From assembly GCA_031372065.1 (NCBI GenBank), contig JANMKN010000108.1, forward strand, positions 1-19,877: 19,877 bases of DNA, in the 5' to 3' direction. Under the pieces are notes generated by a model, which did no database searches, was not told the origin of the DNA, and worked only from the letters and a program-made list of their open reading frames with translations. The DNA is from Abditibacteriaceae bacterium. GTDB taxonomy: Bacteria > Armatimonadota > Abditibacteriia > Abditibacteriales > Abditibacteriaceae. Below, in pieces: positions 1 through 5,706 of this stretch. Within the stretch, counting starts at the first letter, position 1. Every line of letters starts with the position of its first letter. The position numbers and the translations under genes are program-made.

Positions 1-1887
1 AACCCAGAATGCCTTGCGACGCCAGTTTCTATAATCCCAGACATCAGCAGGGTCTTGGCCTTCGTCTCCTGCTTCGATTTTCGCTATCAGCGCTAAACGC
101 TCGCTTTCGTGTGCCGCCGTGCGCTGGGCTGCCATTTGCTGTTTTTGCGCCTCAATCGCTGCGAGTTTCGCGTTATACGCTGCCACCTCATTCTGTCTGT
201 GCAATTCGTCGGCAATTTCACCGGCGCGCGGATTGACTACAGTCACGTTCCACGTCCGTGGTGGCGTAAATTCCGGCACTGTCTCGTTTATGCGCCCTTC
301 GAGCCTCGCAGCTTCAACGCCTTCCATGCAAGCCTTTAATTCAGCATCAAACGAATGATAAACCTTTTCGGGATGCTGTGCCGTTTTATTGGCCGCTAAC
401 GGCTCTGCACGGCGCGTTTTTTCGATAGGTTGAAATTGGAACTGCCAAGTGAATAAAAGCGCGTGTATGGCCTGTAAATGACCTTGTGTTGCCGTGTATT
501 GGGCAGACCACGCATTGTGAAGCGCCGCTGAGAAATAACGGCCTTCTGTGCGCGGCGTGCCAGATGAAAAACACTCTCCATACTCGTTGAATGTGTGAAC
601 GCCGCCATATTGAATTAGGCGCTTGATAACGCCGCCTGTAAGGTCTTGGATTGCCGAAAATGTGATATAGCTGCTGCTTAATTCATCTTCAACAACGACA
701 CGGTTTGAGTGATCACTATCAGGCGTGCCACCAAACAAATAAACCCGAATCGCCTCAAAATACTCCGCTTGCGTGAATTGAGGATTATTCATCATATACG
801 ACGCCAGCGTAGTGCTACCGCAAGCAATGGCAACGAAATTCAGAAAATAAACCACTTCCTGAATGATTTCTACAACTTGACGAGTAGGGCAATATGTGTA
901 GCTTATTGGCGGTTCGTTTTGAAATTGTCCCTGCGGAAACGTCTGTTCTTCCGAAAATCCAGCAACTTCGATTTGATGTAACAGAAATCCGACTTTCATC
1001 ACGCATTGCCACCAAACGCGATAAATTTCCTTTAAGGCATACTGCCGATAAATGTTCATTCGCCGCTTTTGCGCAGCATCTATTGCGAGGTTCGGAATCC
1101 GAGTAGTGAGCGCCGTGTTTTGCTCCTCTATGCTGCCGTCAGGGTATGCCACCCATCCTGAGTGTGTATATTGCATCGTTTCTAACGTCGCTTGAAACCA
1201 CGCGAAACGAGTTAAAACAGCGCTGCCGAAATCTGTTAATTTGATTGCGCCGTTTTTCTCGAAATAATAATCATCTTCTCCTAAGACACCTTTAAACCAT
1301 TGCTTCCGCATACGACCTTTAACAGTTTCGCGCGCCACGTCCAAAACTATAAAAGCGTCTTTTATATAACCGTCTGGATTGCGCGCTGTAAGGTCATACG
1401 AGCGAAAACCCGTTTCGTTAGTAAAATCGTATGGGATGCCATAAAAACCTTGAATTGGCCGCGTTGGTTGTGGAATTAGCGGGCTATTCCGCGTGCTAAG
1501 AATAGCGTCATCGTTGACAATTTCAGGATGCGTATAATAGGGCGTCAAAACAACGCACGGCGTTGATTTTAATATGCCGTGTGCCTGTTCTACCAACCAC
1601 ACCACAACGAAGTGGATATAGCTATTCACATACAAAAGCGCCTCAGCATACGCCAGACGGTTCGCCGTGTCTACCATCGCCTCTGTGGTCGCTGGAATCG
1701 AAAACAAATGGTCATTGTAATTCAACTCAAAAACAGAGACATAACCATTATCATCCGGCAAATGCTCTGCCTGATAGCCTTTAAACCTGTCTCTGTAAGT
1801 GTGGGTTATCGGCGTATGATACACGCGAAACAGATATTGCGCTGTGGCAGTTGTAATGGTTGCAGGGTTTCCTGATGTTGTAGGCAT
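1..1887 (-). CDS. Large hypothetical protein, >=629 aa, 3' end outside window; N-terminal region paralogous to the 279-aa neighbour; possible minor virion protein
   Basis: Manual translation from ATG at 1887 (MPTTSGNPATITTATAQYLFRVYHTP...) stays open with no stop to position 1 (...WDYRNWRRKAFWV). It is absent from the ORF track because no stop lies inside the window. The function is inference. Confidence 0.9.
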   Translation of the reverse strand, partial: MPTTSGNPATITTATAQYLFRVYHTPITHTYRDRFKGYQAEHLPDDNGYVSVFELNYNDHLFSIPATTEAMVDTANRLAYAEALLYVNSYIHFVVVWLVEQAHGILKSTPCVVLTPYYTHPEIVNDDAILSTRNSPLIPQPTRPIQGFYGIPYDFTNETGFRSYDLTARNPDGYIKDAFIVLDVARETVKGRMRKQWFKGVLGEDDYYFEKNGAIKLTDFGSAVLTRFAWFQATLETMQYTHSGWVAYPDGSIEEQNTALTTRIPNLAIDAAQKRRMNIYRQYALKEIYRVWWQCVMKVGFLLHQIEVAGFSEEQTFPQGQFQNEPPISYTYCPTRQVVEIIQEVVYFLNFVAIACGSTTLASYMMNNPQFTQAEYFEAIRVYLFGGTPDSDHSNRVVVEDELSSSYITFSAIQDLTGGVIKRLIQYGGVHTFNEYGECFSSGTPRTEGRYFSAALHNAWSAQYTATQGHLQAIHALLFTWQFQFQPIEKTRRAEPLAANKTAQHPEKVYHSFDAELKACMEGVEAARLEGRINETVPEFTPPRTWNVTVVNPRAGEIADELHRQNEVAAYNAKLAAIEAQKQQMAAQRTAAHESERLALIAKIEAGDEGQDPADVWDYRNWRRKAFWV

Positions 1888-1918
1888 GGCGTTGGACTCT
1901 CGCAGGATAGACAATTTA

Positions 1919-1951
1919 AAATAGCCCGAAACGCAATGTTTCGGGCTATTT
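1919..1951 (-). terminator. Intrinsic terminator-like hairpin downstream of the 279-aa gene
   Basis: Perfect 14-bp inverted repeat aaatagcccgaaac / gtttcgggctattt with a 5-nt loop. On the minus strand the stem ends in TATTTT, 24 nt after the stop codon. Confidence 0.8.
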
Positions 1952-1974
1952 GCTTTAACAGTAACGTTACGGGT

Positions 1975-2814
1975 TTATGCACCCGGTAACATGGGGAACG
2001 ACGGCGGGCGCACTAAAATACGCTCCGCAGCCTGCAACGCGTTGTAAGTGTCCCAAGCTGCGGAAACGATAGCCGCAATTGCTGCCAACACATTCGCAGG
2101 ATGGTTGCCTTGCGTGTAACGATTCCACATACGCCACGCCTGACGCGCCCACTCATTCAACTGACGTTGCACGCCTTCTGCAATTTGGTTCATCGGAGAA
2201 GTGCGGGTTTTCGTGGCTTTGATGATGCGAAAATCTTGCGCGGCGATGGTTTCCACCACGCGCTCAGTCACAAAGCCATTGACAGAAAGCGGAGGCAACT
2301 TCATTACAAAGTTGTTATCGTTAAACGCCTTTGCGATGTTCTCTGTTAGAGAATCACCAGCGCCATACTGTCCAACTGGCGACACGCTGAAACGGGGCGG
2401 AATCGTTCCAGCGTTCAAGTAATCGGCGTATTCTTGCGCGCTCAACACATGGCGAAGATACGTTATGCCGGGTTTGCCCAACTGCGCGGCTTTTTCGATT
2501 GCTAAACAAACCTGTTCAGCAGTTGAACCATCTCCGACATCATAAGCGGCGTTGCCGGTTTCTGAGAGAGGCACGGAAAACGAGCTATAGCGCACTGAGC
2601 GGCTATTCGCGTCCAATTCTGTGAATGTGGCGCGCAAGAAATTCGTGGTCTGAAACGTCACCACGGCTAAGGCAGCCGCCAAGTCAAGCCCTAACTGTTT
2701 GGCAGCGGCGCGAGTAAAAGCGCCTTCCGGCGCCACCCGAAACACTACGCTGTGAGTGTCGCGAGAACCGCGCCCACCCTGAGACATTGCGAGTTTAAGT
2801 CTGTAATCTGGCAT
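1975..2814 (-). CDS. Hypothetical protein, 279 aa; candidate major structural (capsid-like) protein of the element
   Basis: Long clean ORF with Ala/Gly/Thr-rich soluble composition, followed by a terminator hairpin. It shares ordered motifs with the downstream ORF. The structural role is inference only. Confidence 0.85.
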   Translation of the reverse strand: MPDYRLKLAMSQGGRGSRDTHSVVFRVAPEGAFTRAAAKQLGLDLAAALAVVTFQTTNFLRATFTELDANSRSVRYSSFSVPLSETGNAAYDVGDGSTAEQVCLAIEKAAQLGKPGITYLRHVLSAQEYADYLNAGTIPPRFSVSPVGQYGAGDSLTENIAKAFNDNNFVMKLPPLSVNGFVTERVVETIAAQDFRIIKATKTRTSPMNQIAEGVQRQLNEWARQAWRMWNRYTQGNHPANVLAAIAAIVSAAWDTYNALQAAERILVRPPSFPMLPGA

Positions 2815-2982
2815 GATGAAAAAATAAACCGTCCTTCTGAAAATTTTTACGCCAAAATCTCAAGTAACGATTTCTCGAAATTTCTTTGCGTAACCTTGTG
2901 ATTTGCCGCCGCGCAGTTCCTCGGAAAATCGTTTTTCTCTGCGTCGTTGGTAGCAACAAACAATGATTTTTAATGAAAAATT

Positions 2983-3324
2983 CTATTGTTCGCCGCGTAA
3001 CAAGTAGGGATTAGAAACCAGTTTGAAACTCCACTTTGTTTCAGGCGTAAGCCCGAAAATCAGCTATTCCAAAATCGATCCTAATACCGCGCCTTCTGGT
3101 AACGTTACTGCCTTGCTGCGATGAACGTCGCCTGCAAGCGCTGAGTTTTTAGACCAAATGACGTAGTAATGAGAATTTTCTACAGAGTGAGGAAATCTCA
3201 CCGTTACGGTTGTCGCGTCCGGTGTCCACGTCACGCTATTTGAATCAACTAAAACGTCTTTGTCGAACGCGTCTGTAGGCTGTTCTAACGTTGCTAATTC
3301 AAAGAAGCGTGAGCGTTTGATCAT
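2983..3324 (-). pseudogene. Ig/FN3-like small protein interrupted by an in-frame TAG at 3064-3066 (86 aa to the first stop, 113 aa if read through)
   Basis: After TAG the frame continues LIFGLTPETKWSFKLVSNPYLLRGEQ* to TAG at 2983-2985. This matches the FN3-like GLxPxTxYxFxV pattern and the C-terminus of the upstream paralogue. Confidence 0.7.
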
Positions 3325-3374
3325 TGAAAATTGTTAGCGCGCTGTAGGCTTTTTAATGCCCACATACGCGTGTG

Positions 3375-3698
3375 CTATGCAGTCCAATCGTAATCAGCTG
3401 CGACGACGCGAAAACGATAAACATACCCTGCGTTAAAGTGGTTAGAAACGACGTGCCATTTTATGACAGGGTATCCATCGTAGGTCACATGGTCAACATC
3501 AGACGCGAGGAACGGGCCGTGCGTAGCAATAACGTTGTCGTTTACATCGCCAACTTCAAAACCGAAATGCGTCATTGCGTCATCGTAGACAAATGATGCG
3601 CGAAATGTGTCTTGCAGTGCTTCCATGTCCACGTCGCCCAAATCCGAACCCTCCTCCTCAAACGTTTGCATCTCAAAAAAACTTGAGCGTTTCAGCAT
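3375..3698 (-). CDS. Small acidic beta-rich protein, 107 aa, Ig/FN3-like C-terminus
   Basis: Strong SD (AAGGAGG) upstream of ATG. C-terminal AGYVYRFRVVA resembles FN3 terminal strands. The N-terminus MLKRSSFFEMQTFE is shared with the next gene. Confidence 0.85.
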   Translation of the reverse strand: MLKRSSFFEMQTFEEEGSDLGDVDMEALQDTFRASFVYDDAMTHFGFEVGDVNDNVIATHGPFLASDVDHVTYDGYPVIKWHVVSNHFNAGYVYRFRVVAADYDWTA

Positions 3699-3772
3699 TC
3701 TTTCAAACCTCCTTTTTTCAGCTTGCGCGCGTGTTTGGAGTGAGTTGGTGACATCAAACCAATGTGCGGGCG

Positions 3773-3800
3773 CTTCTCATCAATAGGCGTTTTAGCCGAA
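3773..3800 (-). other. Second, degenerate dif-like site in inverted orientation
   Basis: The minus strand reads ttcggctaaaa-cgccta-ttgatgagaag. It has the same central hexamer and flanking aa/ttg as the 3800-3827 site, giving an 11-bp perfect inverted repeat at 3781-3791 / 3809-3819. Confidence 0.5.
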
Positions 3801-3827
3801 CCTGACATAACGCCTATTGTGTCAGGT
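3800..3827 (+). other. dif-like XerC/XerD recombination site (candidate chromosomal dif or att junction)
   Basis: acctgacataa-cgccta-ttgtgtcaggt has two near-palindromic 11-bp arms around a 6-bp spacer. The inner cataa / ttgtgt matches the dif consensus inner cataa-N6-ttatgt. Confidence 0.75.
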
Positions 3828-3881
3828 CAATGATCAAAACAATCTTTAGGAATTTAAATTAAATAATGTATTCCTATAAAA

Positions 3882-3946
3882 TATTTTTATGTATTATTAA
3901 AATTAGAGATTTTTAAAATCATTTGAAATAATAATACATAAAAATA
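3882..3946. repeat. 18-bp perfect inverted repeat in a very AT-rich spacer
   Basis: tatttttatgtattatta (3882-3899) / taataatacataaaaata (3929-3946), enclosing the palindrome gatttt-t-aaaatc (3908-3920). Confidence 0.8.
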
Positions 3947-4011
3947 CGATATATGCTTCTTAATTCATATGTTCCGTTTACAGATATATAGTAGGATTGA
4001 GAAGAATGAGA

Positions 4012-5706
4012 ATGAGCAAGAACCTCTTTTTAGTCAACTACGAAAACCCTGAACTCCGAATAGCAGAAGTCCGCAATAGTCGGCTACACGATTTAGATGT
4101 GGAACGATTTGCTGGTGATCTTGGCAGTATTTATATGGCTGCCATTTCAAATGTTCTTTCTGGTATGGAGGCCACTTTTGTGGATATCGGGCAGAAGAAG
4201 AACGGCTTGTTGCATTTCAGAGATATTCACTGGTTTCCCACAGACCAATCTCGGTCCAAAGCTAACGTTAAAATTGAGAACCTCAAAGTTAATCAGCCTT
4301 TAATGGTTCAGATTGCACGGCCCGGTGTTGGAAACAAGGGCCCGCGACTGACAACGCGCATCTCATTGCCGGGACGTTTTATTGTCTTGGTTTTTCCGTC
4401 GGAGTCTGTTGGTGTTTCGCGCAAAATTGAGTCGGAAGCCGAACGCCATCGTCTTCGCCATCTTATCGAAAAAATTCGCCCTTTCGATTGCGGGTTAATT
4501 GTTCGCACTGAGGCTGAGGGTATTTCGTCAGAGGCTATCGAAAATGATCTCCAAAATCTTCTTGCACAGTTGCAGAATTTGAAGGTTCTATCTAAAACCG
4601 TTACACCTCCGAGCTGTTTACATAAGGATTTGGGTATTTTGGGTAAATTAGTTCGTGATCGCTTGTCCTTGGATACAGAGGCTATTTATATTGATGATGA
4701 AACACAGTTCCAATTTTGCTCCGAAATGATGAAGAATTTCATTCCTGAATTATTGCCGCGTTTACAACTTTATTCCGAAAAAAGGCCCATTTTTGAGAGT
4801 TTTAATGTTAATAAAGATTACCAGAAAATTTTTAGTGATACAGTGACTCTTCCCCACGGTGGCTCGTTGATAATCGAGGAAACCGAGGCCTTAACTGTAA
4901 TTGACGTTAATACCAGTCGCTTTACAGGTAAAGACCGGGTCGCAGAGACCATTTTGCAAACAAACTTGGAGGCCGTGGTAGAGGCTTCCACGCAAATTCG
5001 ACTTAGGAATATTGGTGGTGTAATCGTCATTGATTTTATTGATATGGAAAGGACTAAGGATCGCGTTCAGGTATTAGATGCTTTAGAGGCTACCTTAAAA
5101 TTGGATAGAGTTAAGACGCATATCGTTCAACTCTCGCCATCAGGCTTGGTGGAAATCACCCGCCGCCGTGAAGGGTTAACGCTGGAGCGTTCAATGTATG
5201 AGCTATGCTCTACTTGCAGTGGTTCAGGTAGGTTAAAGACTGCCGAAACAGTTTCAATAGACATTCGGCGGCGTCTTCGTGCTTTGATTAAAGCACCAGA
5301 GCAAACAATTTCAATTCTTACGCATCCAGAAGTCGCTGCTTCATTACTTGGTTATCAAACCGAATTTATATCGCAACTGGAAAATGAGACTTCAGGCCGA
5401 TTCGTGGTGAGGGTGGACGAAACCATGCACCGGGAGAGCGTCCTAATTGATTCATTCGCGCCAGATGCCCCTTTTGATGAGAATGTGATAGAACGCTGCA
5501 CTATAGGCACACACGATCAGCTTTATCCACCCCACGCGCCAGAATATGCGGTATGGCAGAATCTCTTAGTAAAATTGCCCAACATATTTCCTATTTCAGA
5601 AGGAGCTTCCCATGCCAATGAAATAGTTGTGTTAGAAATTATTCATATTGGCCGATGGTTTGCGACGGCCCGAATTGTGCGAGGTCTAACGAATCCGCAA
5701 AATTAA
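4012..5706 (+). CDS. rng: Ribonuclease G/E family (Rne/Rng) with probable C-terminal TRAM-like extension
   Basis: S1 region (GMEATFVDIG...GLLH), KGPRLTTRISLPGRF, catalytic IDVNTS and IDFIDM motifs, Zn-link CSTCSGSG. Start placed at ATG 4012 (MSKNLFLV); the ORF track starts at TTG 3997. Confidence 0.93.
   Translation: MSKNLFLVNYENPELRIAEVRNSRLHDLDVERFAGDLGSIYMAAISNVLSGMEATFVDIGQKKNGLLHFRDIHWFPTDQSRSKANVKIENLKVNQPLMVQIARPGVGNKGPRLTTRISLPGRFIVLVFPSESVGVSRKIESEAERHRLRHLIEKIRPFDCGLIVRTEAEGISSEAIENDLQNLLAQLQNLKVLSKTVTPPSCLHKDLGILGKLVRDRLSLDTEAIYIDDETQFQFCSEMMKNFIPELLPRLQLYSEKRPIFESFNVNKDYQKIFSDTVTLPHGGSLIIEETEALTVIDVNTSRFTGKDRVAETILQTNLEAVVEASTQIRLRNIGGVIVIDFIDMERTKDRVQVLDALEATLKLDRVKTHIVQLSPSGLVEITRRREGLTLERSMYELCSTCSGSGRLKTAETVSIDIRRRLRALIKAPEQTISILTHPEVAASLLGYQTEFISQLENETSGRFVVRVDETMHRESVLIDSFAPDAPFDENVIERCTIGTHDQLYPPHAPEYAVWQNLLVKLPNIFPISEGASHANEIVVLEIIHIGRWFATARIVRGLTNPQN

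Follow-up and report, generated by a model that had tools for sequence, protein, structure and literature searches.

We questioned what the four genes at one end of an Abditibacteriaceae contig represent, given that they stop at a short near-palindrome within the 19,877-nucleotide stretch analyzed here (the window). An earlier note had described them as co-directional orphan genes of an integrated element. All four (A to D; Table 1) lie on the minus strand, and none matched Pfam at E ≤ 1 or a PHROG below E 0.15, so that description held for all but the length of C, which is 86 aa in this assembly (3064-3324, with TAG as codon 87) and 113 aa only with readthrough. We conclude, with a probability of roughly 0.78, that the element is the integrated form of a small phage, one of a family with circular, probably single-stranded DNA genomes of about 5.3-6.8 kb, of which no published description was found. 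Positions 1-3827 make up the structural half of this prophage, whose total size is ~6.3-6.6 kb.

As the note had stated, the element ends at a dif-like 28-mer beyond which host genes begin, namely those for RNase E/G and a methyltransferase. This right attachment site is an 11-6-11 near-palindrome, ACCTGACATAA CGCCTA TTGTGTCAGGT, and was the sole match at ≤6 mismatches across the 6.1 Mb assembly. The left side that the note had proposed to look for was located on a second contig of the same genome, C215, which carries the other half of the prophage with both a Rep_trans rolling-circle initiator and attL. The two attachment sites are hybrid 11-6-11 sites with a common 6-bp core, and their halves occur once each in the genome. 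When the host arm of attL, the core and the host arm of attR are put together, they give the empty site of the same-genus genome G002, letter for letter. The empty site was also recovered from sequencing run X1, in which a 49-nt contig joins the attL flank to the host-side sequence of attR and differs from the window at two positions, as many as an empty site should show. The window contig (C126) shares no overlap with C215, and the remainder of gene A was not recovered from the assembly; their join follows from the logic of the attachment sites, the read-derived empty site and the gene order. No excised-circle joint of this element was seen among the sequencing-run contigs. IS and Tn3-like insertions lie immediately outside attL.

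Table 1. Features of the element and its flank (window positions unless a contig is given).
Feature	Position	Strand	Description
Gene A, 5' part	1..1887	-	629 aa counted from ATG, truncated by the contig end; complete homologues have 727-790 aa
Perfect 14-bp inverted repeat	1919..1951	.	Between B and A; terminator-like
Gene B	1975..2814	-	279 aa; predicted alpha/beta core (about 1-195) and C-terminal helical hairpin
Gene C	2983..3324	-	FN3-like; TAG at 3064-3066 in assembly
Gene D	3375..3698	-	107 aa, FN3-like; strong ribosome-binding site
Inverted partial copy of att core region	3770..3791	.	3781-3791 can pair with 3809-3819
attR	3800..3827	.	Element-side arm 3800-3810, 6-bp core 3811-3816, host arm 3817-3827
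Host RNase E/G gene	3997..5706	+	Flank marking element end; empty site of G002 precedes orthologue
attL	G000:C215:2097-2124		Overlaps 3' end of Rep gene (C215:1198-2136)

No recombinase or integrase ORF was present in the assembled parts of the element, which leave a short gap unassembled, or in the ORF lists of its relatives. With no integrase of its own and with hybrid attL and attR sites that rebuild a 28-bp 11-6-11 host site, the element behaves as an IMEX. By its sequence the insertion site is dif-like, and it may be the chromosomal dif itself; there is a single copy in this genome and in G002 and three similar sites in G021, and the GC skew of two near-complete relatives did not give a clear terminus. 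Neither XerC nor XerD, the pair to which the earlier note had assigned the integration, matched over the cut-off in this 94% complete genome, although these cut-offs are themselves passed by just 3-4 of 14 control genomes. The data support an integrase-less small rolling-circle element at a dif-like Xer site and lend no support to integration by the canonical XerC/XerD pair. A gene for a 306-aa Xer-like recombinase adjoins the site, which lies just 3' of it, and the integrating enzyme is likelier to be this neighbor than XerC/XerD. The site resembles those of single-recombinase Xer systems (XerS/difSL, XerH/difH and XerA), in which, in the text available to us, one recombinase gene is linked to a near-palindromic site (PMC5357621). 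Unlike XerS and XerA, the 306-aa protein scores far under the XerS, XerA, XerC and XerD cut-offs and its site follows directly after the gene. The recombinase family occurs in 19 of the 27 genomes of the bacterial family, with 11-6-11 palindromes ≤40 nt past the stop codon at 5 of 27 loci scored; most of the closer orthologues had no site within 1.5 kb. Since the same core is found at both junctions, integration should be reversible, and the identical cores make a two-way exchange between double strands more plausible than the irreversible route of CTX. The inverted partial core copy next to attR recalls the CTX hairpin and could possibly form a hairpin in single strands; the fold of the predicted excised junction had z = -1.9.

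The Rep encoded on C215 matched the Rep_trans profile (E 8.6e-5) and aligned with the Reps of four relatives at 31-33% identity (E 1e-47 to 3e-39). The search for relatives turned up ten loci, 3.5-6.8 kb in length, four of which are circular by exact terminal repeats of 98-127 nt; small circular contigs with homologues were among the things that the note had proposed to look for. Rep_trans, an FN3 gene, B and A lie on one strand in eight of the ten, and the order FN3-B-A is conserved across the relatives, with this block taking up about two thirds of each circle. Rep_trans was the top Pfam match of all eight Rep ORFs scanned (above the cut-off in three), and the pairing of such a rolling-circle initiator with a circle of 6-9 kb is shared with PhiCjT23/FLiP-type ssDNA phages. 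None of the ten loci had an att-like site at ≤6 arm mismatches. Four of six candidate ORFs scanned in the relatives matched CHAP/NlpC peptidases, and some relatives carry small hydrophobic ORFs (30-115 aa) that we read as holin-like; their presence in several relatives points to lytic release. The assembled parts of the window element encode no recognizable lysin. The genes are not core genes of the phylum: among 401 genomes, full-length B was present only in this genome and in one 6-kb circular contig, and three further genomes had a partial-domain fusion (two) or a weak fragment (one). Genome size, Rep type, coding on one strand and the lack of a packaging ATPase motif suggest that the genome is single-stranded.

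Protein A was predicted to consist of an alpha/beta core, a four-helix bundle and a long helix, with a 16-residue N-terminal extension, and its model (pTM 0.73) has its elements in the same order as that of B. For B the model is poor (3 sequences, pLDDT 62, pTM 0.51); it places long helices between pairs of strands and does not show all-beta sandwiches. The two paralogue pairs proposed earlier fared unevenly. Paralogy of A and B was undetectable by sequence (BLASTP E 0.51, HHalign probabilities of 0.9% and 2.0%, HMM scores no better than shuffles), and a shared core is indicated by agreement of the predicted folds only, while C and D are partly alike, as described below. We regard B as a candidate major capsid protein and A as a putative minor virion protein acting at a vertex or in DNA delivery. 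The inverted repeat between the two genes would raise expression of B over A; similar B-A intergenic hairpins were seen by eye in relatives.

For both models, the top-ranked matches in BFVD were the same unnamed viral proteins of ~190-220 aa (A0A345N5J9, A0A3G2YTG3, A0A3G2YTQ4, A0A345N6D6, A0A345N420 and others), for which no name or function is given. The best E values were 6e-4 for B and 6e-3 for A, the BFVD proteins being shorter and 7-17% identical; B and its best match superposed with a TM score of 0.37-0.47 and an rmsd of 9. These accession blocks presumably stem from a circular-DNA survey. Among solved capsids no fold match was found for either model, in searches whose lists were taken up by helical parts and, for B, with a weak model, and the B profile matched no PDB sequence below E 0.05. 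Without a solved-structure match for the likely shell proteins, this may be a new kind of virus. The same result would suit a non-viral or helper-dependent rolling-circle element, an integrative plasmid or satellite in which B and A coat DNA or associate with the membrane and which spreads in vesicles or in the particles of another phage. Likewise, no match to A or B turned up in 50,697 phage records or in pattern scans of IMG/VR, and in two relatives cellular genes join the B core to a nuclease-type domain (MUG113/T5orf172), an arrangement equally in keeping with a DNA-binding domain and with a capsid. We nevertheless consider such an element decidedly unlikely, given the conserved FN3-B-A block, the cell-wall peptidase and small hydrophobic ORF of several relatives, ORF lists containing no mobilization or cargo genes, and the viral library as the source of the closest structural neighbors of A and B. 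If B is a capsid protein, the fusions are possibly a host defense.

The small proteins C and D, both hydrophilic, had been proposed to be Ig-like, and a family profile places them among FN3 domains. Neither matched FN3 as a single query, but each can be aligned with a family of small proteins, and the profile of that family, built from 10 sequences that include them, matched fibronectin (E 2.3e-9) and also FN3con. By BLASTP they have only their first 15 residues in common, an N-terminal strand-like segment. The sequence pattern of the FN3 proteins places their last strand at the N-terminus, which suggests donor-strand fibers anchored on A or B, in which each subunit would be completed by the N-terminal strand of its neighbor.

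The internal stop in C, the insertions directly outside attL and the gap in gene A could also mean that the family is real and the window copy a decaying relic, which is compatible with the prophage reading and would change only the activity of this copy. In two other sequencing runs (both from one study, each represented by a single contig, at depths of 2.5 and 3.3), T replaces A at 3062, 3066 and 3078, such that codon 87 of C is a sense codon there; among the matches listed for X1, no contig covers 3059-3098. Rep and B are intact, the core is preserved in both attachment sites, and the empty site is present alongside the filled one, and we therefore hold a relic to be unlikely.

The prophage shares its lifestyle with known phages. 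PhiCjT23-like temperate Flavobacterium ssDNA phages are 6-8 kb circles with a replication-initiation-factor Rep, no integrase and 28-nt dif-like flanks (PMC9719478, in the text available), and the window element resembles them in each of these respects, with a Rep of Rep_trans type. In Enterogokushovirus prophages (Microviridae), the available text describes a small circle that integrates reversibly through a phage dif-like motif, with empty and filled sites coexisting, and that needs XerC and XerD (PMC7062461). The window element matches these in its small circle, dif-like motif and empty and filled sites side by side, and differs in having one Xer-like gene adjoining the site and neither XerC nor XerD over the cut-off. 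A very divergent member of the PhiCjT23/FLiP-type phages, microviruses or inoviruses, with a capsid missed through the poor B model, would account for genome size, Rep type and dif-type integration (PMC9719478; PMC7062461, available text). However, the PhiCjT23 capsid is a double jelly-roll, and A and B are predicted to be alpha/beta with helical bundles and yielded no match to it. That fold was absent from our fold-search lists, in which helical parts dominate and the B model is weak, but the predicted secondary structure does not fit it, and the better A model, with its common element order, had no jelly-roll match. Spikes are not reported as separate single-FN3 genes like C and D in the available text on PhiCjT23 (PMC9719478). 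The Microviridae VP1/F single jelly-roll was rejected on the lack of Pfam, PHROG and PDB matches and on the alpha/beta prediction.

Like the window element, CTXphi, VGJphi and TLCphi use host Xer (PMC5357621, available text). They differ from it in their Zot ATPase and probably in their transmembrane coat protein: the block contains no short transmembrane coat gene, the small hydrophobic ORFs of some relatives being candidate holins, and by a motif test only, ORFs of at least 60 aa in seven of eight relatives had no Walker A, the lone match being a chance, non-conserved one inside one B. A divergent member of a known group is thus very improbable. The RstA family of CTX is, like the Rep of the window element, of Rep_trans type.

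For the prophage reading, the following cycle can be proposed. The Rep_trans initiator, assigned by profile, would nick a putative hairpin origin just upstream of rep and drive rolling-circle replication. Near its 3' end, rep on the double-stranded circle would contain a 28-bp copy of the host 11-6-11 site, whose 6-bp core, common to phage and host, would be where a tyrosine recombinase of the host swaps strands, as the observed junctions suggest. In the virion, B would form the major capsid and A would be a minor component, longer than B but sharing its predicted core, with D and C as FN3 appendages probably linked by donor-strand complementation; the CHAP/NlpC peptidase and hydrophobic protein of relatives would serve lytic release. 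We give slightly less than even odds to the fuller combination of a new ssDNA phage lineage with an alpha/beta capsid (B major, A minor) unseen in solved virions, donor-strand fibers of circularly permuted FN3 units whose N-terminal strand anchors on A or a long form of B, single-recombinase Xer lysogeny, and host capsid-domain/nuclease fusions.

The major bacterial ssDNA virus groups are defined by few virion types: filamentous, single jelly-roll and double jelly-roll. A family that joins a standard rolling-circle Rep to an unassignable structural block would add a virion type and allow some 'dark' circular contigs to be named. The Rep_trans and dif-type integration lifestyle is known; any novelty lies in the structural module, with its putative capsid role. 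What makes the case testable is the availability of a host genome, both junctions, an empty site and complete circles. If true, donor-strand FN3 fibers would be a new way of building a virus appendage, and the IMEX concept would be broadened by an element that exploits a single-recombinase Xer site.

The window spans the whole of its contig (C126), with no sequence left of position 1, and the 28-mer at 3800-3827 (attR) is its sole copy in the assembly (G000) at up to six mismatches. Since an earlier note had read window 1-3827 as a small, integrase-less virus at the host dif site, we sought a second att copy, a replication gene and an empty site in a related genome, and all three were found. 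The one Rep_trans match in G000 was a 313-aa Rep on contig C215, preceded from the contig start by short ORFs of 87 and 103 aa and a hairpin that we take to resemble a rolling-circle origin. Inside the 3' end of rep (C215 2097-2124, minus strand) lies attL, ACCCGATATAA CGCCTA TGTTGTAACCT, which shares its core with attR, ACCTGACATAA CGCCTA TTGTGTCAGGT. In G002, a genome of the same genus without the element, a tyrosine recombinase gene and the gene for RNase E/G flank a site that reads ACCCGATATAA CGCCTA TTGTGTCAGGT. Joining the left arm at C215 and the right arm in the window to the core that both junctions share thus gives the G002 site, and either half is single-copy in G000.

Past attL, C215 runs into part of what we take to be an IS and then a presumed Tn3-like transposon. 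The IS reading frame resumes on contig C307, directly after a gene orthologous to that of the G002 recombinase (92% identity), and C215 and C307 have 141 nt in common at the transposon end, itself a repeat. This IS, split by the Tn3-like transposon (C215:2136-6141 and C307:7703-8046), parts the recombinase gene from attL. Evidence independent of this overlap came from sequencing run X1, of which a 49-nt contig carries the C215 flank ahead of window 3799-3836 with two differences, the number separating the two left arms, and by our reckoning its ends fit 31-mers possible only from the empty site (the two differing letters are not given). Depths in X1, which may be the source sample, were 2.5 at the empty and 4.0 at the filled junction; this empty site may stem from excision or from never-infected cells. 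The assembled parts, between which no C126-C215 sequence overlap was found, sum to ~5.9 kb, and allowing for the part of A that is missing puts the whole element at about 6.3-6.6 kb. An ABC-transporter ATPase gene lies downstream of a methyltransferase gene in G002 (L014, contig C6) and upstream of the recombinase gene in G000 (C307/C126); the region around the site has therefore been rearranged. G002 also contains many apparent frameshifts, and window 3875-3953, in the intergenic stretch of the host ahead of the RNase E/G gene, holds an AT-rich 25-nt inverted repeat (88% complementary).

The four co-directional orphan ORFs described earlier (A, B, C and D) were indeed present on the minus strand within 1-3698, but C reaches its proposed 113 aa only with readthrough of a stop at codon 87. 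Contigs from two further runs, X2 and X3, each single, of low depth and from one study, have T instead of A at 3062, 3066 and 3078, turning this stop into a sense codon; X1 had no listed contig across 3059-3098. The stop may reflect an assembly error or a strain difference. The suggested paralogy of B and A found no support in sequence comparison.

Open reading frames of the element and cellular genes related to B
Feature	Location	Strand	Length	Description
A	window	minus	629 aa	ORF, open at contig end
B	window	minus	279 aa	ORF
D	window	minus	107 aa	ORF
L052	G021:C13, 7020-8078			B core fused to MUG113/T5orf172 nuclease-type domain
L053	G021:C11, 6621-7619			B core fused to MUG113/T5orf172 nuclease-type domain
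L018	G018:C92, 880-2205			B core fused to MUG113/T5orf172 nuclease-type domain

Among 1.84 billion representatives, A had 26 homologues at E<=0.001. Eight of nine looked up were on single contigs of 3.3-6.8 kb, and the ninth was on an 82.5 kb contig, the same length as the contig carrying a 53% identical B homologue. In the ten loci that we examined, nine of them metagenome contigs and one a contig of family genome G042, exact terminal repeats were present in four, and Rep, an FN3-like ORF, B and A lay on one strand in eight; the other two are 3.5-kb fragments with B, A and a candidate lysin. Rep_trans was the best Pfam match of all eight Reps, three above cut-off; four of these Reps share 31-33% identity with that of C215. 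CHAP or NlpC/P60 matches were obtained for four of six candidate ORFs (one above cut-off) and for none in the assembled parts of the G000 element. At the lysin position of locus L022 (2703-3218), a 172-aa ORF that has no Pfam match but is 37% identical to a homologue encoded on host contig C402 is possibly an unrecognised cell-wall hydrolase. We also tested the alternative that these are core genes of all relatives: of 401 genomes in the phylum, only G000 and G042 (on its circle) have full-length B, so the element genes are not core.

As regards the suggested entry at dif through host XerC/D, the site has a dif-like 11-6-11 (arm-core-arm) layout both filled and empty, and no G000 protein exceeded the cut-off for XerC or for XerD, the best scoring 200-208 bits, on C68. 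Relatives of the 306-aa recombinase adjoining the site occur in 19 of the 27 genomes of the family. Of 30 recombinase loci, 27 were scored for nearby 11-6-11 palindromes: a clear one lay <=40 nt after the recombinase stop in five (G002, G012, G021, G022, G023) and about 1 kb upstream in two more, while one of the three unscored loci had a perfect palindrome nearby. G021 has three such sites. Outside G002, the palindromes accompany a more distant paralogue, not the closest orthologue. The site is thus dif-like and tied to the 306-aa recombinase family; a function in chromosome-dimer resolution is putative. Judged from sequence, the identical cores at attL and attR favour a reversible double-strand exchange, and a hairpin route via an inverted partial core copy at 3781-3791 (z -1.9) is possible. 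The unnamed Xer-like family with near-perfect or perfect palindromes beside the gene at L074, L075, L076, L080 and L082 (genomes G023, G021, G012, G022 and G024) scores far under every curated Xer cut-off and is a candidate single-recombinase system. In G000 another member of the recombinase family, a second copy with 57% identity (C282:353-2922), directly follows a gene judged by eye to be a putative plasmid replication initiator.

The A-family model (query homologue P0004, 23 sequences) reached pLDDT 70.6 and pTM 0.73, and the B model (3 sequences) 61.7 and 0.51. In each model an opening strand-strand-helix-strand-strand leads into a second strand/helix unit, and helices complete the order. 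No convincing PDB match, and no double jelly-roll among the matches listed, came from either model, in searches dominated by helical parts and with a weak B model. Both placed the same unnamed ~200-aa BFVD proteins first, with nine accessions common to the two lists, and this joint ranking, the sole support, modestly suggests a common core of the predicted folds. From its size, its occurrence in all 10 loci, its place before a terminator-like hairpin and the lack of another candidate, we infer that B is the major capsid protein. Against this, cellular proteins that end in a MUG113/T5orf172 domain, one in G018 and two in G021, match residues ~14-215 of the B profile with their N-terminal part (about 46 bits). 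Such fusions are possibly domesticated viral proteins serving defence. One fusion gene adjoins an E2/ThiF/JAB gene, apparently of CBASS type, with Fic-like genes near.

The small-protein profile matches FN3 domains, and its match to the 100-residue FN3con stops at residue 88, ahead of what we take to be the last strand. Every small protein starts with a strand-like segment whose last residue is an invariant Thr; in some, a linker of no more than 5-6 residues comes next. A segment of this kind begins A in the window and in L023 and L024, with none on their B; in L025, L026, L027 and L029 an extended in-frame form of B carries it, and their A is without it. In L020 (the G042 circle) it begins a separate ORF (1277-1543) overlapping the first part of B in a different frame, and a programmed frameshift could fuse the two. 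Extensions of 16-17 residues were present in 7 of the 26 A homologues and of 3-11 residues in 11, with one ambiguous and seven fragments; GGAGG precedes the internal Met in three of five long B genes. FN3 and anchor N-termini resembled each other more within a genome than across genomes (47 of 40,320 permutations, 8 loci), with anchors picked by eye and L028, nearly a duplicate of L025, omitted; the D-A pair of the window itself had the lowest score in its row (-2). We lean slightly towards FN3 fibres with a donor-strand mechanism, which would be anchored via the N-terminal segment on A or B.

As described, PhiCjT23-type prophages (PMC9719478), gokushovirus prophages (PMC7062461) and the IMEX reviewed in PMC5357621 work in the same way as the G000 element, in which capsid hallmarks of Microviridae and Inoviridae were not detected. 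Charybdis elements, as reported, are without a recognisable Rep and have beta-sandwich hallmarks (bioRxiv 10.1101/2025.08.03.668216), and the G000 element therefore differs from them. Unclassified circles described in PMC7000223 may include BFVD neighbours of the A and B models. No description of this Rep/FN3/B/A gene set was found in the literature searched. A novel capsid fold together with donor-strand fibres is a tentative proposal. The element itself is real and the core idea of the earlier note holds: it is probably (about 0.78) a prophage belonging to a family of small phages that appears not to have been described.
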